A stretch of DNA of 64,000 nucleotides. It comes from Escherichia phage ECO340P1. The stretch's first letter is position 1; each line of letters opens with the position of its first letter. The stretch is from the sequence record OP172791; one strand, given 5' to 3'. The notes below the pieces were generated by a model, which had not been told where the DNA came from, did no database searches, and saw only the letters and a list, made by a program, of their open reading frames with translations. Positions 1-20,157 of the stretch are shown here, in pieces. Position numbers and translations under genes: made by a program.

Positions 1-77
1 GGTTGATCTATAAGCTCAACATGCAAGCCGGATGATTCAGCGGTTTTAACGGCGGTTAATACTGTTGCAATACTCAT
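1..77 (-). CDS. hypothetical protein, partial (3-prime end beyond window start)
   Basis: ATG at 77 with SD AAAGGAAAAG; ORF runs off window; GC hairpin 98-113 upstream. Confidence 0.4.
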   Translation of the reverse strand, partial: MSIATVLTAVKTAESSGLHVELIDQ

Positions 78-97
78 AATCTTTTCCTTTCTGATGT

Positions 98-113
98 GGG
101 GCGTTGCCGCCCC
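98..113 (-). promoter_or_regulatory. GC hairpin in 5-prime UTR (cassette family, hairpin only)
   Basis: GGGGCG-TTGC-CGCCCC inverted repeat directly upstream of SD of gene 1-77. Confidence 0.4.
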
Positions 114-121
114 TTTGTTGA

Positions 122-421
122 TTAGATCGCTGTTTCCAGTAGTTCGGCTAACGTCTTACCGCCTGATAGTTGGTCTAACGTTTGCTCTTCTGGCAAGAAA
201 TTAGCTGATATTAATCCGACTTGATTTCCTTTGTGCCAATTAGCTTGACGGATGATTCCATCCTTTAAAGATTTTACCGCCATTGTGCAACCGTCGCCAA
301 ATGATTCATTTTTATGATCCATCACTTCATAAGCGCCCAGCTTGCTACTGTTAGGCACCATTAACGCGAATACATCACCAACAACCAGTTTTTCTACGGT
401 AATAATAGCGATAGTTTCCAT
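122..421 (-). CDS. hypothetical early protein (99 aa)
   Basis: ORF with SD GAGGAAAG directly after promoter-hairpin cassette. Confidence 0.6.
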   Translation of the reverse strand: METIAIITVEKLVVGDVFALMVPNSSKLGAYEVMDHKNESFGDGCTMAVKSLKDGIIRQANWHKGNQVGLISANFLPEEQTLDQLSGGKTLAELLETAI

Positions 422-439
422 TTTACTTTCCTCATTATC

Positions 440-496
440 GGCGGCACCATTGCCGCCCTACGTGGTAAATATTAGCACACTGGCGATCTGTGTCAA
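440..496 (-). promoter_or_regulatory. promoter-hairpin cassette for 122-421
   Basis: TTGACA 491-496, N16, TAATAT 469-474, hairpin GGCGGCA-CCAT-TGCCGCC 440-457. Confidence 0.6.
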
Positions 497-502
497 TACT
501 TT

Positions 503-889
503 TTATTCAATATAAATCAAATTATCTTCACCAATGTAAGCCGACACGTTCGGCATAAACTTAGCTGCATTGGTTAGGCGGTTGGCTGTGTTAGTGGTGT
601 ATATTTCAGGGCGATCCCAAAAGCCTACGCCGTGACCGTTACGGGTAAAATGTAAATCATTCCCGATCTGGTTGGCTGTTGCGCCGTCGCTCATTGCCTC
701 AGAGATAGCGGCAAGATTAGCATTAATAAAGGCTGTTACATCCTGGGCGATCCGTTGATCTGCGCTAGGAGAAAAATCATAATCGTCTAAGTTATCAATA
801 AAATTACCTTCATGATCCCTTGCTGATTCAGCAAAAATAAAGGCTTCTTTATAGCCGTTGATGATTTCAATAATGATTTCTGTTTTCAT
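503..889 (-). CDS. hypothetical protein (128 aa)
   Basis: ORF; ATGA start/stop overlap with upstream gene, co-transcribed. Confidence 0.6.
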   Translation of the reverse strand: MKTEIIIEIINGYKEAFIFAESARDHEGNFIDNLDDYDFSPSADQRIAQDVTAFINANLAAISEAMSDGATANQIGNDLHFTRNGHGVGFWDRPEIYTTNTANRLTNAAKFMPNVSAYIGEDNLIYIE

Positions 890-3725: not shown

Positions 3726-4079
3726 TCATTCATAAGAGCAAGCAAGGATCACGCCTGCAATATAAAGCCAATAATTTTCCCTTTCTCGTTGGATTTTATC
3801 ATCGCTGCTATTCTCTTTAATGTATCCCCAGGATGTTAACAAGCGATCAATTTCCCAATATTCGAAAGCTATATTAATATCTGATGGCAAACCTTGTAAC
3901 CATGATGCAAGTGCTTTAACAATACTATAATTAAAACGTGATTGATTATCAGGGTACCAGTACTCGGAATTAAAACGGCGCATCAATTCCGCGATCTTCT
4001 CTTTTTCGGTTGTAATACCGTAATCATTAAAATCGATAGCGGCAAGGATGTACTCTTTAATTGCATTTTGTGCTTTCAT
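3726..4079 (-). CDS. hypothetical protein (117 aa)
   Basis: ORF downstream of cassette. Confidence 0.6.
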   Translation of the reverse strand: MKAQNAIKEYILAAIDFNDYGITTEKEKIAELMRRFNSEYWYPDNQSRFNYSIVKALASWLQGLPSDINIAFEYWEIDRLLTSWGYIKENSSDDKIQRERENYWLYIAGVILACSYE

Positions 4080-4097
4080 GGTCTTTCTCTCTTTTTA

Positions 4098-4154
4098 GCG
4101 GGAACTATTCCCGCCCTACGTGTAACAGTTTACTGAAAATTAAATCCGTGTCAA
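4098..4154 (-). promoter_or_regulatory. promoter-hairpin cassette for 3726-4079
   Basis: TTGACA 4149-4154, N16, TAAACT 4127-4132, hairpin GCGGGAA-CTA-TTCCCGC 4098-4114. Confidence 0.6.
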
Positions 4155-4157
4155 GCT

Positions 4158-4379
4158 TTATTTTGTTACTACCATTTGGTACCCTGTTTCAATGTTAGTA
4201 AATACTGTTATCCCGTCCTGGCGTTCACTCATTAGCATACAAGGCGCTAACATCCTTTCTACTGCCTTGCACTCATTGTAAACGGCGGTTATGTCTCCTG
4301 CGGCCTTGTCTTCTGTGGTGAATGTATCGTTTATGTAAACTTGACTAGCGACAACGGCGACAATAGCGAAAGTGATCAT
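4158..4379 (-). CDS. hypothetical protein (73 aa)
   Basis: ORF; weak SD. Confidence 0.5.
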   Translation of the reverse strand: MITFAIVAVVASQVYINDTFTTEDKAAGDITAVYNECKAVERMLAPCMLMSERQDGITVFTNIETGYQMVVTK

Positions 4380-10119: not shown

Positions 10120-10662
10120 TCACAAATATCGTCTTTGCGGTATTTTGTCTGGGAAAAGTATTTCGATCAGTTTGTTATGATATTTGCCTAAAAGATTCTG
10201 CCCTTTCCAGGTGGCAGGGTTTAGCACCCCTGGTTCATACATCCCCATTCCAATTCCGTAAACCTTATCGTAGGGGCTTGCTTCAACAAACGTTTTGTAT
10301 TGGTAAAGGTGTAAGTCTGCATACAAATCTGGATTCTGTACATATTTCAAGCATAAACCTCGCATAACAATACGCTCACGGTTCTCTTCCCATACGTTGT
10401 TATCAAAATCCGACACTGCCCTACCCATACGTTTGTAATAAGCTTGTTTCCTCTCGTTGTCACGTATAGTCGAGTGATCAAGGATAGCTGCTGCAATCGC
10501 ATGATCCTTGAACAGCAAAGCCTTACGCCACATCATATATTGCTCAACACAACAGAAAGTCTCATTGTAACCTGGTTCGGTTTCTGTAAAGGGTGCAATA
10601 TACCAATTACTAAAAACATCTTTATGTGAAAAGAAGAATACATAATCATCCGTTATTCGCAT
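10120..10662 (-). CDS. NADAR (DUF1768, YbiA-like) domain protein
   Basis: Motifs FSNW, CVEQYMMWRKALLF, MGR, SPYDKVYGIGMG, WKGQNLLG align with NADAR family pattern. Confidence 0.8.
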   Translation of the reverse strand: MRITDDYVFFFSHKDVFSNWYIAPFTETEPGYNETFCCVEQYMMWRKALLFKDHAIAAAILDHSTIRDNERKQAYYKRMGRAVSDFDNNVWEENRERIVMRGLCLKYVQNPDLYADLHLYQYKTFVEASPYDKVYGIGMGMYEPGVLNPATWKGQNLLGKYHNKLIEILFPDKIPQRRYL

Positions 10663-10850: not shown

Positions 10851-11216
10851 TTAATCCATCCACCAGTAGCCATAAACTGCGTCTGCGTCGATGAGTTTGT
10901 GTTTGTTGTTCCGCATGTAGTCTAAGATAAGTAGACGTTTATTGTATCTGGAGAGATTATGACCCTCTTTTCCGCCATAGTCAAAATATTTTGCAAGATC
11001 TTTGCACTCAAACAAAATTAGTTCAGGAGTTTCTTCACACTGGTCTGTCTGGTACACTTGACGAATGATCATGTATACATCGTCGTCTTCCGCTAAATGC
11101 TCTACTGGTCCACATCCAGCAGGAACAAATTCATAGTCCCATCGAATCAGATGTTTCTCTACTGCTTCAAAGAAATCCATCCTTTCGTTGCGCATAATTT
11201 GAACGTCAACTAACAT
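10851..11216 (-). CDS. hypothetical protein (121 aa)
   Basis: ORF with SD ACAGGAGAAAA. Confidence 0.55.
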   Translation of the reverse strand: MLVDVQIMRNERMDFFEAVEKHLIRWDYEFVPAGCGPVEHLAEDDDVYMIIRQVYQTDQCEETPELILFECKDLAKYFDYGGKEGHNLSRYNKRLLILDYMRNNKHKLIDADAVYGYWWMD

Positions 11217-12412
11217 GTTTTCTCCTGTAATGTTCCACCATAAAGTTTATAAATGTTTTGTATTGAGGCCATGCAAGATAACTCTACTGTTTCTGTGTAG
11301 CCATCTGGCATAGCATATTTGCTCACTGCTTCCGTGTGAAGGACACGCTTACAACGCTTCTCTGCATCTTTGCATTGCTTCACAGTAGGGAAGTGCCACA
11401 CTTGGACCTGTTTCATAGTAAACACATTACGACTATTTTGTTTTTTGATACGGCGATCACTATTATTGGCAATTCCAAATTTCAAAGCACAGAGAATACC
11501 TTGTTCATCATGAATGTGGTTAATGTAACATTGTTGTTGTGTCTGGTTAGCACATTGCGGACAACCAGTGCCATGATTTAACAAACCACTGGCACGTCCT
11601 ATTTGTACCCCATGTTTCTTACATCCATATTTAAACTTACCTAATCTTACAGACGGTTTCCCGATCCAACCTACCCAGATATACCCTTTCCTTTCTACTG
11701 CCTTTTTTACCCTATAGGTAATCTGTGCTTCTGTGTAATGACAATTAGTTGCACAACGGCAAGGAATCTTCCCTTGTTTAAGGTCATTCCCTGCGACATA
11801 AAACTTACCATCACACACCCCAGCTTGCACATACTCATCGTGAGAGCAGGCAGGACACTCTACACACCATAAAGAATCGCGGCCTCGTTTTTTATCTGTT
11901 TTAGTGAAGATTGTACCCTCTTTAAACTTTCCTGTATTAATGAAGTCTTGTATGTGCTGATCGTCTGGAAGTATTTTAGAATTCCTAGATCTTTTGTTAC
12001 CGCATTTAGGACAACCACTACCACCCTTAAGATTATGAAATGTTAATGTTCGCCATTCCCCGTGCTCAGGACAAAGGTTGATCATCTTTGTATGTACACC
12101 TATAAACTCTCCATTAATGCCTAAAATCTTGATTCCCTTAGCTTCAGCAATAGGTTTACATTCCGAAAGGTAATAATCTAGGTTTTTACTGTTGTCTTGT
12201 CTTGCTTTCTCATTTTTGCACCTAGGGCAACCAGACTTACCACGTTTAAAATTGGCAAATGTGGATGTTCTCCACTCCCCATGATTAGGGCAGAAGTTGA
12301 TCATCTTCGTGTGCACACCTTTAAATGGCTCTACAATCCCTATAATCTCATATCCTTTAGCTTCCGCTATTGGTTTACATTCTCCTATATACTGTTCTAA
12401 CGTCTTCGCCAT
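11210..12412 (-). CDS. Cys-rich protein with duplicated Zn-ribbon modules, possible homing-endonuclease-like
   Basis: Two repeats ECKPIAEAKG...CPxHGEWRT...GCPxC; C-terminal KFGIANNSDRR resembles T5orf172/GIY-YIG-like motif. Confidence 0.5.
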   Translation of the reverse strand: MAKTLEQYIGECKPIAEAKGYEIIGIVEPFKGVHTKMINFCPNHGEWRTSTFANFKRGKSGCPRCKNEKARQDNSKNLDYYLSECKPIAEAKGIKILGINGEFIGVHTKMINLCPEHGEWRTLTFHNLKGGSGCPKCGNKRSRNSKILPDDQHIQDFINTGKFKEGTIFTKTDKKRGRDSLWCVECPACSHDEYVQAGVCDGKFYVAGNDLKQGKIPCRCATNCHYTEAQITYRVKKAVERKGYIWVGWIGKPSVRLGKFKYGCKKHGVQIGRASGLLNHGTGCPQCANQTQQQCYINHIHDEQGILCALKFGIANNSDRRIKKQNSRNVFTMKQVQVWHFPTVKQCKDAEKRCKRVLHTEAVSKYAMPDGYTETVELSCMASIQNIYKLYGGTLQEKTC

Positions 12413-12492: not shown

Positions 12493-13632
12493 TCAGAACA
12501 CGCTACCCAGTGTAGTGGAACGTTGTGTTACAGGCTCCAGCACCACTCGCAGAGTGTTTCCTGGTGTAGTGCTCATCACCAGAATCTTACCACCTTCAAT
12601 CAGATCACAAGTTAGACCATCAGCAGTTGCACACAGATCAATATGTGGATCGCCATCTTCATCCAGGATAACATAACTGTTGGTTTCCATTGCTTCCACT
12701 TCATCATCTTTCAAACTTTGTAGATAGATGTTCAGGGAACAAGCACCCGACAAAAACTTAGTAGGGGTGAAGTCGTGCCAGTTATTGATCCAATTCACCT
12801 TCAAGGTTTTGCCATTAGCTACGATAGAAGCCACATTCCATTTAGCATCGTTCCCTAAAGAAATACCCATCATTTCAAGACATTCTTTAAAAGTCATTTT
12901 TGGATAGAAATTCAATTCTTCTACAATGCCTTGAATAACATCGAAAGACAACTCTGTGCTAACATCCCATAAACGTTGGAAGTTATCTACGTGCTTTTTA
13001 TTTACCAAGTTCTTATCCAAGTAATCTAACATAGTTTCACTAGATAGTTTATCGTAATTGAAACTGTAGTAGATACGACTAGGACGGTTTACAAAATATT
13101 CCGAGATATAGCCACTATTTTTAGTGAGGATGTAAAGTTTATTCCCACTTCCTGTTCCATCCAACAAGGTCAACAGTGCTTCCTGATCTTCTTTCTTAGC
13201 GTACACTTTATCAAATTCGTCAAATAAAACAACAGCACGATCTGTAATTTTACTCATAAATTCTAAGAAGCCAGCATCTGTGTAAGGCTGTGTAACCAAA
13301 ATGGTTGGAATACCTAAACCTTCTGTGGACATTAGAGACATGCTAATCAGTTTAGCTAACATCGTCTTACCACTGCCCTTTGTCCCTGTCAGTAACACCC
13401 CAGTATTTTTACCTTCTTTACTACGACGAGCAAATGTTTTAATAACATGTGCGGCGCGGTCTTTAGTTTCCCCATAAAGAGTGTTCGGAAGAGAGAAACT
13501 TTCGCCACGCACTAAAGAGTAGTTACCGTGCGGATCGCAGTTGACAACCCAAACTCCAGCAGGAAGTTTATTAGCTTCAACACCATATTCCTTATTTACA
13601 ACAGCCACATCTCCAAAAATAGTGTATTTCAT
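12493..13632 (-). CDS. AAA+ ATPase
   Basis: Walker A GTKGSGKT and Walker B VVLFDEFD; unknown C-terminal domain. Confidence 0.65.
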   Translation of the reverse strand: MKYTIFGDVAVVNKEYGVEANKLPAGVWVVNCDPHGNYSLVRGESFSLPNTLYGETKDRAAHVIKTFARRSKEGKNTGVLLTGTKGSGKTMLAKLISMSLMSTEGLGIPTILVTQPYTDAGFLEFMSKITDRAVVLFDEFDKVYAKKEDQEALLTLLDGTGSGNKLYILTKNSGYISEYFVNRPSRIYYSFNYDKLSSETMLDYLDKNLVNKKHVDNFQRLWDVSTELSFDVIQGIVEELNFYPKMTFKECLEMMGISLGNDAKWNVASIVANGKTLKVNWINNWHDFTPTKFLSGACSLNIYLQSLKDDEVEAMETNSYVILDEDGDPHIDLCATADGLTCDLIEGGKILVMSTTPGNTLRVVLEPVTQRSTTLGSVF

Positions 13633-15771: not shown

Positions 15772-15808
15772 TTGGTTCTCCTCTCTTAATTGATGGAAAT
15801 AGTATACC

Positions 15809-16300
15809 TTACCACATAATCTCGCGCAACTCTTTTTCTTCTTTAAAATTACGTAAGTTTTCCAGTGCACGATTTAGGTCTTCTTCCGTCTCTGCTTTCT
15901 GGACTTTTTCCATTATTTTCGCAACAATATTTTTCTTAACTTGCAAATCTGGAACAGGCATACGTTTTTCCATTTCATAAGCTTCTCGTTTATGACGTTC
16001 CTCCATCTCTGCTTTTTCTTTCACCCAATCCGCCTCGTCCATTGCACCTTTGCAGACACAAGTGTAACCTTTAATAGTATAATCCCCATGTTCAATACCA
16101 GGTTGAAGAGCTAAGGCTTCATTACCACAATACGCGCACAACGGACGACCTGGCATTTTCAAAGTTTTGGTAGCCTTAGCGCCACATTGACTATCCCAGC
16201 TTGTTTTATAACTGGAACCGTTGTCTCCGTGAGAACGACCAACCAAGAAGTTACGGAAGAAACCCATAGCACGTTCGTCAATGTAATCAGGGTAAGCCAT
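15809..16300 (-). CDS. hypothetical Cys-containing protein (163 aa)
   Basis: ORF with SD AAAGGAGAA; CAYCG and CVCKG motifs. Confidence 0.55.
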   Translation of the reverse strand: MAYPDYIDERAMGFFRNFLVGRSHGDNGSSYKTSWDSQCGAKATKTLKMPGRPLCAYCGNEALALQPGIEHGDYTIKGYTCVCKGAMDEADWVKEKAEMEERHKREAYEMEKRMPVPDLQVKKNIVAKIMEKVQKAETEEDLNRALENLRNFKEEKELREIMW

Positions 16301-16312
16301 TATATTCTCCTT

Positions 16313-16606
16313 TCACATTAAGACACGTTTTGTGTCGATGGGTGCATTATCAAACATGTTAAGAACATTGTCAAGCAGTTTTACTAATTCCTTTGTAATT
16401 TGTTCTTTTGAACGGGAGGAAGTGAGCACTTTGCTTTCACCAACGATATGCATAACTTTTATAGGAGCGTCTAAAATGATGTTGTGTTGACGATCCTCTT
16501 CAAAAGAAGCCAACCATTTCTCATTGTTACCGTGCAAGGCTACAATCACACCAAAACCGTTAATTGTTTCGGAAATATTTTTAGTTGCTAAAGTAATGTT
16601 CATCAT
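16313..16606 (-). CDS. hypothetical protein (first gene of leftward operon; start 16606 or 16603)
   Basis: ORF with SD AGAGAGG; promoter TTGATC-N16-TATCAT upstream. Confidence 0.5.
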   Translation of the reverse strand: MMNITLATKNISETINGFGVIVALHGNNEKWLASFEEDRQHNIILDAPIKVMHIVGESKVLTSSRSKEQITKELVKLLDNVLNMFDNAPIDTKRVLM

Positions 16607-16631
16607 CTACCTCTCTTGTTAATGTTCATAC

Positions 16632-16659
16632 ATGATACCTGAAAATAATTTCAGATCAA
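16632..16659 (-). promoter_or_regulatory. sigma70-type promoter for leftward operon 16606 to 10120
   Basis: TTGATC, N16, TATCAT on minus strand. Confidence 0.5.
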
Positions 16660-16662
16660 GTA

Positions 16663-16690
16663 TTGACATACTTTTTAATCTTGTTAAGAT
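16663..16690 (+). promoter_or_regulatory. sigma70-type promoter for rightward block starting 16721
   Basis: TTGACA 16663-16668, N16, TAAGAT 16685-16690; divergent from minus promoter. Confidence 0.6.
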
Positions 16691-16720
16691 CAACTCCTAC
16701 CAAACAAAAGGAGAAAACAA

Positions 16721-17164
16721 ATGCAAAACATCCAAAACATCAAACTGACTTGGCCCGAAGCTAAAGAAGCAATGAAGGAAGGTAGACGTGTTGAGCACCG
16801 CCATTTTTGTGGTGGCGAATGGTTTGAGATGCGAGATGGTGTTATTCTCGACGAACAAGGTTATAACATGGAAACTTGGTTCAGAGGGGAAGCTTGGCAG
16901 GAAGAGGGTTGGTCTGTAATTGAAAAAGAAGACAGTAAGGAAGAAGGCGTGTTGTCTAATGTAGAACGCGAGATGAGGGAAACAAAGATACCTGCTTTGG
17001 ATTTTGTATACCTGGAAGAACTTGTGGCAGCATCTTTTGTAGCAGGAAATCTTTGGAATACACCTGTTAGCCGACTGGAGAACCAAAATAACCCATCTGC
17101 TCGTAATCACAAGCTTTATAAGGGTAAAGGTCACAACAAATTAAAGAAAGGAAAGAAGAAATGA
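16721..17164 (+). CDS. protein with N-terminal DUF2829-like (Tad2-like) motif and basic tail
   Basis: SD AAAAGGAGAAAA; N-terminus LTWPEAKEAMKEGRRVEHRHF..GEW resembles DUF2829 pattern; Lys-rich C-terminus. Confidence 0.5.
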   Translation: MQNIQNIKLTWPEAKEAMKEGRRVEHRHFCGGEWFEMRDGVILDEQGYNMETWFRGEAWQEEGWSVIEKEDSKEEGVLSNVEREMRETKIPALDFVYLEELVAASFVAGNLWNTPVSRLENQNNPSARNHKLYKGKGHNKLKKGKKK

Positions 17165-17307
17165 TCTACAAAAACAAGTTCACTGGTTGTCTCCGTAAAT
17201 TTATCGATAAGAAAGGGTATGTTTCTCTTGACAACGGGGCTACATGGATAGAGAATGGTGCTTCAGAACAATTGATCAAAGCTTTGCCTTACTACGAGGA
17301 GGTTTAA
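17161..17307 (+). CDS. small hypothetical protein (48 aa)
   Basis: Unlisted ORF with SD AAGGAAAG; ATGA overlap; ends 1 nt before next ATG. Confidence 0.4.
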   Translation: MIYKNKFTGCLRKFIDKKGYVSLDNGATWIENGASEQLIKALPYYEEV

Positions 17308-17631
17308 ATGTCAAACAGCCTGTTTAGCGTGTCAATTGCACCACGTGTCAACATCCGTTGTCAGTTTGTTACTTTACCTGGTGTAACGCATATCACATTA
17401 GAATACGATCCTCGTTCACGAGAGAACCCAATTACAGGTAAGATTGATTCAGCCTACGGCGACTTCCTGATGGATCACCAAGCGATCTTATGTTGTGTGC
17501 AACGCTTACAGGCAGGGTCTTTATACATCTTTAAGAAGTCTGTGTTCCAAGAAATTGCTCAAGCAGTTGAAAGCGGTATGGAGACTCTTAACGCTATGAT
17601 TGAAGCAGCCAACAAGAAGGAGGTTTTATGA
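17308..17631 (+). CDS. hypothetical protein (107 aa)
   Basis: ORF with SD GAGGAGG. Confidence 0.55.
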   Translation: MSNSLFSVSIAPRVNIRCQFVTLPGVTHITLEYDPRSRENPITGKIDSAYGDFLMDHQAILCCVQRLQAGSLYIFKKSVFQEIAQAVESGMETLNAMIEAANKKEVL

Positions 17632-17888
17632 CACTTTATCACGTAACTACAGAAGGCGACTGTGAAGGCCGCACTACAAAAGATTTGGGGTATGTTGAAG
17701 CAGATTCACCTGAACATGCTATCAAATACCTGCATTCCATCGGGAAGTATGCGGGTTATGAGTATACTATCTACGAGGTTGAAATTATTAACCTTATACA
17801 AGTGGCAACTCCTATGGCAGAGTTGAAACATCTTAAGGCAAAAGTAAGACCTGGTATAGTGTCCGATTACAAAGGGGAAGTAAAATGA
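17628..17888 (+). CDS. hypothetical protein (86 aa)
   Basis: ORF with SD AAGGAGG. Confidence 0.55.
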   Translation: MTLYHVTTEGDCEGRTTKDLGYVEADSPEHAIKYLHSIGKYAGYEYTIYEVEIINLIQVATPMAELKHLKAKVRPGIVSDYKGEVK

Positions 17889-18097
17889 GTGGATGGATTA
17901 AAGTATCTGGTACCGAGGATGTTCCTATCGGAGAGTGGCTTGTAATCATGGCAAACGGCAAGAAGGGATTCTGTGAAGTTAACAAAACACGCAATGGCAC
18001 GATAGCTGTTATCAATGGTCATTTTTATTTTGACTTGGCACCTGTGATCGCATACCATGCACTACCAACATATGAAGAGGAGATTAACAATGGCTAA
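17885..18097 (+). CDS. hypothetical protein (70 aa)
   Basis: ORF with SD AAAGGGGAAG. Confidence 0.55.
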   Translation: MSGWIKVSGTEDVPIGEWLVIMANGKKGFCEVNKTRNGTIAVINGHFYFDLAPVIAYHALPTYEEEINNG

Positions 18098-18407
18098 CAA
18101 AGAACCACATGTATATACTGCACTGGTAAAGCACTTGAACAAAGAACGTAACAGGATCATTGCAGATTATCGTAAATTTAAACGTAGTAGTCTAAATCGT
18201 AAATACATGCCACATGCAGCTTTTGACGCTACACGTGCAGTATTTCGTGCAAAGATTGCGGAAATGGATAATCTGCTTAAGCTTGCACGATTATCTATTC
18301 ATGCATCCAAAGTAACAGGAGTCACTCACTTCTTTGACTTCGATACTAAAGCACTATATGCACCAGAAGCAGGTGAACAATTGATTTATCTACTTACCAA
18401 AAAATAA
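18090..18407 (+). CDS. hypothetical basic protein (105 aa)
   Basis: ATG 18090 with SD GAGGAG. Confidence 0.5.
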   Translation: MANKEPHVYTALVKHLNKERNRIIADYRKFKRSSLNRKYMPHAAFDATRAVFRAKIAEMDNLLKLARLSIHASKVTGVTHFFDFDTKALYAPEAGEQLIYLLTKK

Positions 18408-18583
18408 GTGTTGACTTTTTTCAAAAAATATGCTACCCTAACCCCGAAGGGTCGAGCGATAGCGAGTATAGATTATGTAATAGATTAATCTCTATCGTTA
18501 GATGTTCGAAGAACAGAGATTTAAGTACTTGTTCTTATCGGTAGATGATCGTAAGATCAAGAACAATAATAGGAGAGTGTGTT

Positions 18584-19370: not shown

Positions 19371-19544
19371 ATGGGAGATAAACAAAGTAACATCCGTTAC
19401 GCGCTTTATGGAAGAATGGGTGCAGATTGTGAATGGATGCTTCTGTCGCAACGTATACCCTCTTACAAAGAGGCTCTTGAAAAAAGAGACTATTATAAAC
19501 AAACATGGCGTTTTGTCATTTGTAAACACTATTTGGAGGCGTGA
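19371..19544 (+). CDS. small hypothetical protein (57 aa)
   Basis: Unlisted ORF with SD TAAGGAGG; overlapping track ORFs 19408-19632 and 19332-19559 judged spurious. Confidence 0.45.
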   Translation: MGDKQSNIRYALYGRMGADCEWMLLSQRIPSYKEALEKRDYYKQTWRFVICKHYLEA

Positions 19545-19852
19545 TGAGTACATTATCATTAGCAGTTACGGTGCACCAGTATTACGAAGAAGCTGTAAAA
19601 GATTCAGAAAACCCATCTACATTGGTGTTTGAAGATCGGACTGGTCTTAAATGGGTAGAATCTGGGGATGAACTCTACTTTTGGTATCCACAAGGTTGCA
19701 CAAGTAATTCTAATTTGTATAGTTATGAACTGGAGTATCGTGCGCCTGTAGACGAAGATGACAATTACATCATGTATTATGTTAATAATGGTTGCGGTGA
19801 AACGTTTAATGTAGTATTCTCTAAAGCCTTGAAGTCCGACGAGGAGATGTAA
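19544..19852 (+). CDS. hypothetical protein, tandem paralog A (102 aa)
   Basis: ATG 19544 with SD GGAGG; similar to the next gene. Confidence 0.55.
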   Translation: MSTLSLAVTVHQYYEEAVKDSENPSTLVFEDRTGLKWVESGDELYFWYPQGCTSNSNLYSYELEYRAPVDEDDNYIMYYVNNGCGETFNVVFSKALKSDEEM

Positions 19853-20157
19853 TGCGGCACAATACGACTTTAAGTTTGGCAGTTGCAGCCCACATGCTGT
19901 ACAATGATTCTGTGAAGAATGAGTTGTCGCCTGTGAGTTTAGCTTTCTATCTGATAGACAGGGATTGGATGTTCTCTGGTGAGGATGAAATCTACTACGT
20001 AAATTCACGCGGTTTTATTGAAAGTTTTGAACTTGAACATCGTGCACCAACAGCAGAAGATGATCGTTTTATTATGTTTTGTGTAAAAGATGGTTACGGA
20101 GAGGTATATGACGTAGTATTCTTCAAAAATCGACAGAAGACTGAAGAGGAATTCTAA
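19852..20157 (+). CDS. hypothetical protein, tandem paralog B (101 aa)
   Basis: ORF with SD GAGGAG; shares LSLAV..H..Y, ELE(Y/H)RAP, (F/Y)NVVF motifs with previous gene. Confidence 0.55.
   Translation: MRHNTTLSLAVAAHMLYNDSVKNELSPVSLAFYLIDRDWMFSGEDEIYYVNSRGFIESFELEHRAPTAEDDRFIMFCVKDGYGEVYDVVFFKNRQKTEEEF

Follow-up and report, generated by a model that had tools for sequence, protein, structure and literature searches.

Evidence for a stripped-down Tad2-fold domain joined to a portable basic tail in an early protein of a phAPEC8-like Escherichia phage

Introduction

Tad2 proteins (DUF2829; PF11195) are among the most versatile phage sponge families known. The ligands published for them are glycocyclic ADP-ribose (gcADPR), histidine-ADP-ribose (His-ADPR), cyclic UMP and cyclic CMP (cUMP/cCMP), N7-cyclic ADP-ribose (N7-cADPR), and cyclic dinucleotides (bioRxiv 10.1101/2023.05.01.538930; 10.1101/2023.11.15.567273; 10.1101/2024.01.03.573942; PMC12393519). 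Here, we analyzed a gene in a 64,000-nucleotide stretch of Escherichia phage ECO340P1 (OP172791), which we refer to as the window. The gene, at positions 16721 to 17164, encodes a protein of 147 amino acids (aa), and a sequence-only reading had assigned a DUF2829-like domain to its N terminus. We found that the evidence supported a Tad2 fold for the N-terminal domain, that the motifs with which Tad2 proteins contact their ligands were absent, and that the basic C-terminal tail was also present on unrelated proteins. The reading that we favor, with a probability of roughly 40%, is that of an early, two-ended protein in which a minimal Tad2-fold binder of a noncanonical ligand or partner, with an anti-defense role, is joined to a portable tail module.

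The ligand contacts of two Tad2 proteins have been described. SPO1 Tad2 uses W25, N26, W73, S76, T78, and D79 (bioRxiv 10.1101/2023.05.01.538930), and HgmTad2 uses W21, N22, G23, W87, S90, T92, and D93 (bioRxiv 10.1101/2023.11.15.567273). The GWNGK loop between β1 and β2 touches the ribose and diphosphate of gcADPR via W25/N26 in the SPO1 protein and W21/N22/G23 in the Hgm protein (bioRxiv 10.1101/2023.05.01.538930; 10.1101/2023.11.15.567273), and the W21A/N22A and S90A/T92A/D93A substitutions in HgmTad2 markedly reduced gcADPR binding (bioRxiv 10.1101/2023.11.15.567273). An insertion between β2 and β3, which covers residues 36 to 59 of SPO1 Tad2 and residues 32 to 72 of HgmTad2, bears helix α2, which makes the V-shaped dimer contact; the long forms also have their cyclic-dinucleotide pocket there (bioRxiv 10.1101/2023.11.15.567273). 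The Tad2 sponge is a homotetramer, and its ligand pockets lie where protomers meet. When we compared the solved Tad2 proteins, the motifs R-x-GWNGK and W-x-x-S-x-[ST]-D-x-L-A-x-DW were kept in all of them, including ModTad2, which binds His-ADPR and cUMP.

The N-terminal domain and its relation to Tad2

The N-terminal motif quoted in the sequence-only reading was read correctly, as residues 9 to 34 of the protein are exactly LTWPEAKEAMKEGRRVEHRHFCGGEW. Residues 7 to 68 matched positions 2 to 63 of the 64-position phrog_3474 profile in PHROGs (E value of 5.1e-30), and H26, F29, E33, E45, G47, and W64 were all present. Judged by this whole-domain match, the family to which the N-terminal domain truly belongs is phrog_3474. 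The signature of an 82-member family alignment (A3) begins with [ML]9-T10-x-x-E13-A14 ... M18 ... G21-x-K23-V24-x-H26-x-Y28-F29, continues with E33-[YFW]34 ... G40-x-I42 ... E45-x-G47-Y48 ... [FW]53-[WFY]54, and ends with W59 ... G63-W64-x-[IV]66. The 147-aa protein carries T10, E13, A14, M18, G21, K23, V24, H26, F29, E33, and G40 of this signature, followed in the second half by I42, E45, G47, Y48, W59, G63, and W64.

When a profile of the domain (alignment A2) was used in an exhaustive hmmsearch of 1.84 billion representatives, 336 proteins were identified at an E value of <1e-3, and most of them were standalone proteins of 59 to 70 aa. With tblastn, the domain was located in 469 phage records, which included Klebsiella T4-like phages, T5-like phages of Salmonella and E. 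coli, FelixO1-like phages, rV5-like phages, and Erwinia phage Y2. The conserved residues of the standalone phrog_3474 proteins were identical to those of the 147-aa protein. Most family members are the bare domain, whereas the 147-aa protein, P0028, P0030, P0040, and 05F01 gene_71 add a linker and the tail module. Among the other arrangements, the domain was found at the C terminus of larger proteins, with varied C-terminal extensions, and in a single case (P0045) as two tandem copies. In the window, a hidden Markov model (HMM) search of all six-frame open reading frames (ORFs) yielded no second copy of the domain or the tail, and a literature search found no paper on the 147-aa protein or the ~60-aa family. 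The domain profile also matched parts of four giant repeat proteins in multiple stretches, namely, P0026 (2489 aa, a Tudor-repeat protein), P0058, P0065, and P0148 (a Listeria-Bacteroides repeat protein). These are not family members, and the matches suggest that the β1-β3 part of the domain resembles generic small β-barrel hairpins.

A direct search did not connect the protein to DUF2829. A Pfam hmmscan of the 147-aa protein returned 0 families even at an E value of ≤10, which places the protein below the curated threshold of PF11195. Scans with PADLOC and NCBIfam gave no match, and phmmer against PDB sequences returned only insignificant CutA matches (E value of ~0.3), which we dismissed as noise. 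In contrast, when the family members were scanned one by one, 34 of the 82 had weak matches to PF11195 "Tad2-like" (best E value, 5.8e-4), and no other Pfam family was matched by more than 6 of the 82. For comparison, SPO1 Tad2 (gp34.65) was recovered from the SPO1 genome, and 54 proteins carrying PF11195 were collected. An hhalign comparison of the family profile with the 54-protein PF11195 profile gave a probability of 87.8% and a P value of 3.3e-6, with a confident alignment of only 23 columns that covered α1-β1 ("mnFG-A-e-LK-G-kVaR") and broke off immediately ahead of the GWNG loop. Searches of HMMs against sequences, run in both directions, again confined the similarity to α1-β1, and against a local HMM built from the 54 proteins, the domain of the 147-aa protein scored 5.7 bits (E value of 0.075 in an 82-sequence search). 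In profile searches of PDB sequences, SptTad2 (8wjd) ranked first or second at E values of ~0.2 to 0.3, and its match consisted of two colinear segments, the N-terminal helix and a C-terminal "W ... DW-x-V-x-E." Because the profile-profile score was obtained over exactly the residues of the quoted motif, the resemblance to DUF2829 is, at the sequence level, above chance. The α1-β1 motif "[FT]-x-x-A-x-x-A-[LM]-K-x-G-x-[KR]-V" is common to the domain and to SPO1 Tad2, HgmTad2 (AcrIIA7), SptTad2, and ModTad2. The domain and Tad2 are also alike in being small, mildly acidic, and aromatic rich, and the proteins are alike in being phage encoded and early.

The structure predictions agreed with this kinship. 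The full-length AlphaFold2 (AF2) model was confident for residues ~5 to 68 only. In a Foldseek search of the PDB with this model, 6 of the top 10 matches, including rank 1, were Tad2 entries, and the best of them were SPO1 Tad2 entries with probabilities of 0.89 and 0.84 and E values of 0.2 to 1. A domain-only model, which was built from the 82-sequence alignment, reached a predicted local distance difference test (pLDDT) score of 87.4 and a predicted template modeling (pTM) score of 0.72; the order of elements in the domain is α1, β1, loop, β2, β3, loop, short helix, and β4. Several 60- to 63-aa phage proteins annotated as "DUF2829 domain-containing" or "Thoeris anti-defense 2-like" were among the BFVD matches. 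Thus, four independent lines of evidence (the Pfam matches of family members, the PDB profile searches, hhalign, and structure) support a Tad2 fold at the level of structural superfamily and indicate that the domain is probably a remote homologue of Tad2. Functional membership in the Tad2 family was not supported. The DUF2829 assignment of the sequence-only reading therefore stands for the fold, with the transitive and structural evidence overturning the empty direct search, and does not stand for a direct Pfam match or for sequence similarity past α1-β1.

Departure from the Tad2 ligand site

The residues that are invariant in the 54 PF11195 proteins are, in SPO1 numbering, R22, W25, N26, G27, K28, M30, S76, Q77, D79, L81, D84, and W85. 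In place of G-W-N-G-K, the 147-aa protein has H28-F29-C30-G31-G32, and the family as a whole has the consensus Y-F-[TSCA]-x-[DE]; only the aromatic character of the W25 position survives, as F in 79 of the 82 members. Thus, Tad2 has R-x-GWNGK where the ~60-aa family has H-x-Y-F-[TS]-x-D-E (H26-x-Y-F29-[TSCA]-x-[DE]-E33). The second Tad2 motif, W-[LV]-x-S-Q-T-D-x-L-A-E-D-W, is likewise missing. The 147-aa protein has W53-F-R-G-E57-A-W-Q-E-E-G-W64 instead, and the W-x-x-S-x-T-D part is not conserved in the family, which has [FW]53-[WFY]54 ... W59 ... G63-W64. At position 53, 61 of the 82 members have F or W; position 56 is variable, E occupies position 57 in 27 of 82, and W64 is present in 80 of 82.

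A relaxed, low-confidence hhalign alignment placed F29, C30, W53, G56, E57, and W64 in colinear register with W25, N26, W73, S76, D79, and W85 of SPO1 Tad2, respectively. In this alignment, both pocket aromatics and the final Trp survive, and the polar contacts are lost. According to DSSP, β2 (residues 35 to 38) and β3 (residues 41 to 44) of the model are joined by a 2-residue turn, which leaves the domain without the insertion between these strands. Tad2 proteins are 85 to 105 residues long, compared to about 60 for the domain studied here, and no characterized Tad2 carries a linker and basic tail module like those of the 147-aa protein. The suggestion that the protein works as the known Tad2 sponges do was not upheld, as the gcADPR-contact motifs and the insertion with the cyclic-dinucleotide pocket were both missing.

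The linker, the conserved helix, and the basic tail

Three segments follow the N-terminal domain (Table 1). The linker was rich in insertions and deletions in the alignment of close homologues (A1), had a pLDDT score of about 40, and carried a net charge of -2. The columns of the helix module were invariant or nearly so in alignments A1 and A5. The Lys-rich tail that the sequence-only reading had described was confirmed. Its 20 residues at the very C terminus (RNHKLYKGKGHNKLKKGKKK) sum to a net charge of +10, and the remainder of the protein is acidic. The tail consensus K-[LI]-x-K-G-[KR]-G-H-N-[KR]-L-[KQ]-K-[GR]-K-K-K was invariant in close homologues. Nearly all of the 36 invariant columns of A1 fell within residues 98 to 147, and by this measure, conservation in the protein is highest in the C-terminal module. 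The "DF..LE" helix and the tail were both kept in P0028, P0030, P0040, P0049, and 05F01 gene_71, the linkers of which were quite different. Two N-terminal domain homologues, P0015 and P0049 (positions 4001 to 4330 of metagenomic contig L006), had an internal deletion of β3 and the E-x-G-Y loop, and the "DF..LE" helix and tail were intact in both.

In distant phages, the tail codons vary synonymously (CAC/CAT, TTA/CTC/CTT, GGT/GGA, and AAA/AAG), which indicates that the constraint acts on the protein. We rejected the idea that tail conservation is purely a nucleotide-level effect of a ribosome-binding site, as such an effect explains only the last ~5 codons, and KGKGHNKL is kept synonymously.

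The same tail was found on unrelated N termini, specifically in phrog_27594 (e.g., KB57_234 of a Klebsiella phage, Mydovirus), in P0292 and P0295, in 185- to 188-aa proteins of L011 and L012, and at the C terminus of phrog_21279. The form K-[LI]-x-KG[KR]GHNKL[KQ]K[KR]KKK is common to phrog_27594, phrog_21279, and the L011 and L012 proteins. In the latter three, a preceding "DF..LE..aA" helix is also shared with the 147-aa protein ("DF..LE..aA.f...lW" in L011 and L012). The N-terminal parts of phrog_27594, phrog_21279, and the L011 and L012 proteins are unrelated and have no Tad2-like domain, and the source of each is an rV5/phAPEC8-like phage of ~145 to 153 kb. All of the tail-bearing proteins that could be traced came from phage genomes of ~135 to 153 kb or from viral contigs of at least 98 kb, and the sources with a taxonomy line were Vequintavirinae or Stephanstirmvirinae. 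A degenerate DNA pattern recovered tail occurrences that included those in L011 and L012; tblastn with the C-terminal module was almost empty, probably because of low-complexity masking. In the profile scans of the protein, the tail matched no known family. In P0142, a homologue of the N-terminal domain, the position of the tail is occupied by a SEC-C motif (Pfam E value of 2.8e-8), which in SecA binds SecB, ribosomes, and lipids.

Seven sources of the tail without a Tad2-like domain (L009, L010, L013, L014, L011, L012, and P0295) had a common "[IV]V[VL]LG[AC]G(P)..G" segment about 40 to 60 residues before the tail. The segment resembles the GxGxxG strand-loop of dinucleotide-binding proteins; a full Rossmann fold would not fit into tail-bearing proteins this short.

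Gene, promoter, and genome setting

The source genome is of the Phapecoctavirus type (phAPEC8-like myovirus, Stephanstirmvirinae), and positions 15800 to 18500 are 98.8% identical to Escherichia phage vB_EcoM_ASO2A. The ORF begins with ATG and matched phrog_22208, a gene of the phAPEC8 group, over its full length (E value of 2e-102). Homologues are present in about 100 phAPEC8-like genomes, close full-length homologues (alignment A1) were limited to phAPEC8-like phages, and divergent relatives had synonymous codon changes with a preserved protein sequence. Given the full-length match, the spread of homologues, and the synonymous-change pattern, the ORF is a real gene. Its counterpart in vB_EcoM_ASO2A (ASO2A_246) is annotated as a "hypothetical protein," and the label "hypothetical" recurs in every relative. 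The coordinates of the gene and associated features are listed in Table 1.

Table 1. Features of the 147-aa gene and its immediate surroundings in the window
Feature	Position	Strand	Basis
σ70-like early promoter, TTGACA-16 nt-TAAGAT, TG before the -10 element	16663..16690	+	Consensus scan
Shine-Dalgarno sequence GGAG, 7 nt 5' of ATG	16710..16713	+	Read directly from the sequence
Coding sequence, 147 aa plus stop; phAPEC8-like phage hypothetical protein (phrog_22208)	16721..17164	+	ORF call, PHROGs match, homologues
Stripped-down Tad2-fold domain (phrog_3474 family), residues 9-68	16745..16924	+	PHROGs, alignments, model
Acidic linker, residues 69-92, length variable, predicted disordered or low-confidence helix	16925..16996	+	Alignment, model
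Conserved "DF..LE..(V)AAS(F)..G..W.TPVSR" helix module, residues 93-127	16997..17101	+	Alignments A1 and A5
Basic tail RNHKLYKGKGHNKLKKGKKK, residues 128-147	17102..17161	+	Alignments
Downstream ORF, 48 aa, ATG overlapping the stop codon (ATGA)	17161..17307	+	ORF call, comparison of phages

The placement of the gene directly after a divergent promoter, as put forward in the sequence-only reading, was correct. The leftward block ends at position 16606, and after a 114-bp gap that contains the promoter, the rightward block opens with the 147-aa gene. The promoter matched the consensus at 10 of 12 positions, and a promoter is annotated at the equivalent position in vB_EcoM_ASO2A. Klebsiella phage 05F01 and contig L006 also have a TTGAC(A/T)...TAAGAT arrangement 5' of their homologous blocks. 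At the start of the gene (positions 16721 to 16744), the protein of the window reads MQNIQNIK, and most relatives have MQNIK; the difference resembles a 9-nt tandem duplication (CAAAACATC ×2) directly after the start codon. A 145-aa antisense ORF inside the gene (positions 16697 to 17134, minus strand) is unannotated in vB_EcoM_ASO2A and is most likely spurious.

The 48-aa downstream ORF has its ribosome-binding region within the final Lys/Gly codons of the tail (AAAGGAAAGAAGAAA), and the ATGA overlap was conserved in all three phages compared. We considered a conserved two-gene module with a translationally coupled downstream ORF and rejected it, as the overlap is kept but the downstream protein differs among phages.

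The neighboring genes are mostly small and of the function-unknown class. The first gene of the leftward block (16313 to 16606, minus strand) encodes a DUF7325 protein (E value of 1.2e-23), and DUF7325 is also present in the leftward block of L006 (2450 to 2737, minus strand), one gene from the junction. The third gene of the rightward block (17308 to 17631, plus strand) encodes a DUF7247 protein (E value of 2.4e-46). Two adjacent plus-strand ORFs of about 101 to 103 aa, at 19541 to 19852 and 19852 to 20157, look like tandem paralogues and share the motifs "LSLAV," "ELE[YH]RAP..EDD..IM," and "G.GE...VVF." On the minus strand, a 400-aa protein with CapR-homology (E value of 2e-28) and DUF723 domains (11210 to 12412) is encoded beside a 379-aa AAA-type ATPase (12493 to 13632), which is labeled "ATPase" in relatives.

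Another minus-strand ORF, which is located 6 kb from the 147-aa gene (10120 to 10662, 180 aa), has a strong NADAR domain (PF08719; E value of 1.8e-35). NADAR enzymes take ADP-ribose off guanine, so this ORF could be a counter-defense gene against DarT-type toxins. In L006, the block that diverges from the homologue of the 147-aa gene contains a Gad2-like gene (PF26128, Gabija anti-defense 2; positions 1 to 662, minus strand), and no equivalent was found in the scanned stretch of the window. The NADAR and Gad2-like genes fit an early accessory or anti-defense region and prove nothing about the 147-aa gene. Atd1, a MazG-like pyrophosphatase, was rejected as an identity for the 147-aa protein because it is unrelated by its nature. 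PMC11724313 lists it only as an anti-TIR (Toll/interleukin-1 receptor) protein in Phapecoctavirus.

Discussion

In the reading that we favor, residues ~9 to 68 form a minimal Tad2 fold, with an N-terminal helix and a small antiparallel sheet that has no β2-β3 insertion. The domain would oligomerize via helix α1, as Tad2 does, because α1-β1 is the sole segment that is still similar to Tad2 and α1 is the tetramerization helix there. An indirect hint of an oligomer-type function is provided by the tandem domains of P0045. Aromatic residues would wall a pocket at the interface, with F29 at the place of Tad2 W25 and W53/F54 at the place of W73, and the lining would include the family-specific polar residues H26, E33, and E45. 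What such a pocket takes up, be it a small molecule or the surface of a partner, would differ from the gcADPR, His-ADPR, and cyclic dinucleotides of canonical Tad2, and the protein would most likely serve, early in infection, to neutralize a signal or a component of host immunity. An acidic, flexible linker connects this domain to the separately conserved "DF..LE" helix and KGKGHNKLKKGKKK tail. The C-terminal module is portable among N-terminal domains of rV5/phAPEC8-like phages, and its most likely role is in anchoring or targeting, with a polyanion or a specific partner (such as nucleic acid, the ribosome, a membrane, or a phage or host protein) as the destination. The gene, its promoter, the family, the fold, the loss of the canonical motifs, and the modularity of the tail are supported by the data directly; oligomerization, the pocket, ligand binding, the anti-defense role, and the function of the tail are inferred. 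The plasticity of the Tad2 scaffold, the rebuilt, conserved, aromatic-rich surface, and the early promoter together make an oligomeric binder of another ligand or partner, with a role against the host or its defenses, the simplest reading. A bolder form of this proposal strikes us as doubtful. It holds that phrog_3474, the tail-bearing 147-aa protein included, is a new, very widespread clade of Tad2-fold sponges with a rebuilt pocket (H26, F29, E33, E45, W53, and W64) for an immune or host signal that sponges are not known to take up and that the portable KGKGHNKLKKGKKK module is a new targeting device by which rV5/phAPEC8-like phages concentrate different anti-host effectors at one cellular site.

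A number of results weigh against the favored reading. The 147-aa protein had no match in the Pfam, PADLOC, and NCBIfam scans, and the residues at the ligand-contact positions R22, W25, N26, G27, K28, S76, T78, and D79 (SPO1 numbering) are replaced. In the ~60-aa family, acidic residues (D/E at positions 31 to 33) occupy the loop that corresponds to the diphosphate-binding loop of Tad2, which argues against a Tad2-like binding mode. Past β1, the residue mapping depends on a low-confidence alignment only. Helix α2, the V-shaped dimer interface of Tad2, is absent from the domain, and the oligomeric state is therefore uncertain. Finally, the N-terminal domain deletions in P0015 and P0049 may mean that the C-terminal module is the essential part.

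The last point leads to the main rival explanation, a possible one that we rated not much below the favored reading, in which the C-terminal module is the functional core. The module would bind a polyanion or other target (DNA or the nucleoid, RNA or the ribosome, or an anionic membrane) in early host takeover, and the N-terminal domain would be an oligomerization scaffold that makes the tail multivalent. The conservation pattern fits this explanation, given the invariant columns of residues 98 to 147, their preservation through synonymous changes in distant phages, the occurrence of the module on at least three unrelated N termini, and its retention in the two deletion homologues, and so do the +10 charge of the tail and the SEC-C motif at the same place in P0142. 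However, the N-terminal domain, which has a far wider distribution than the tail and is mostly standalone, must be functional by itself, and the invariant polar residues H26, E33, and E45 exceed what a 60-aa scaffold needs. In addition, part of the tail conservation may stem from its overlap with the ribosome-binding site of the following gene, and the tail had no match to a known nucleic acid-binding motif.

It is unlikely, in our estimation, that the domain is a protein-binding inhibitor that docks on a host defense or housekeeping protein, as was first proposed for the DUF2829 protein AcrIIA7 and Cas9. The loss of the canonical ligand residues, the conservation of a distinct invariant surface, and the fusion of the domain to many different partners are compatible with docking. 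On the other hand, no candidate partner is consistently encoded beside the gene, and AcrIIA7 was later found to be a Tad2 sponge for which direct binding to Cas9 was never demonstrated (bioRxiv 10.1101/2023.05.01.538930; 10.1101/2023.11.15.567273).

A canonical Tad2, that is, a homotetrameric sponge of 1''-3' gcADPR or cyclic dinucleotides that blocks type I Thoeris or the cyclic oligonucleotide-based antiphage signaling system (CBASS), is quite improbable. The fold match, the early position of the gene, and the aromatics at the W25 and W73 equivalents in the relaxed alignment are what such a protein would have in common with ours. The lack of a PF11195 match, the absence of the mutagenesis-backed GWNGK and W-x-x-S-x-T-D motifs (bioRxiv 10.1101/2023.11.15.567273), and the loss of the cyclic-dinucleotide-binding insertion, as seen when DSSP of the model was compared to the published topology, all oppose it. 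That the motif is a chance resemblance in an ordinary orphan early gene without Tad2 kinship is very improbable, in spite of the empty direct Pfam search, the insignificant CutA matches from phmmer, and the confinement of the PF11195 similarity to about 23 residues.

If the domain does no more than act as a scaffold or bind a protein, the finding is an ordinary one, an early gene with a recognizable fold. The sharing of the conserved basic tail module by unrelated N-terminal domains poses a small puzzle of its own, and it could reveal where early phage effectors go. Hundreds of genomes of lytic enterobacterial phages (T4-like, T5-like, FelixO1-like, and rV5-like phages among them) encode the stripped-down Tad2-fold family with its putatively rebuilt pocket. 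Because the 147-aa protein gets no Pfam match, the ~60-aa family would probably be overlooked by profile-based anti-defense annotation. It offers a cheap, well-defined set of candidates in which to look for new sponge specificities, and the ligands might in turn point to new signaling molecules of Enterobacteria.

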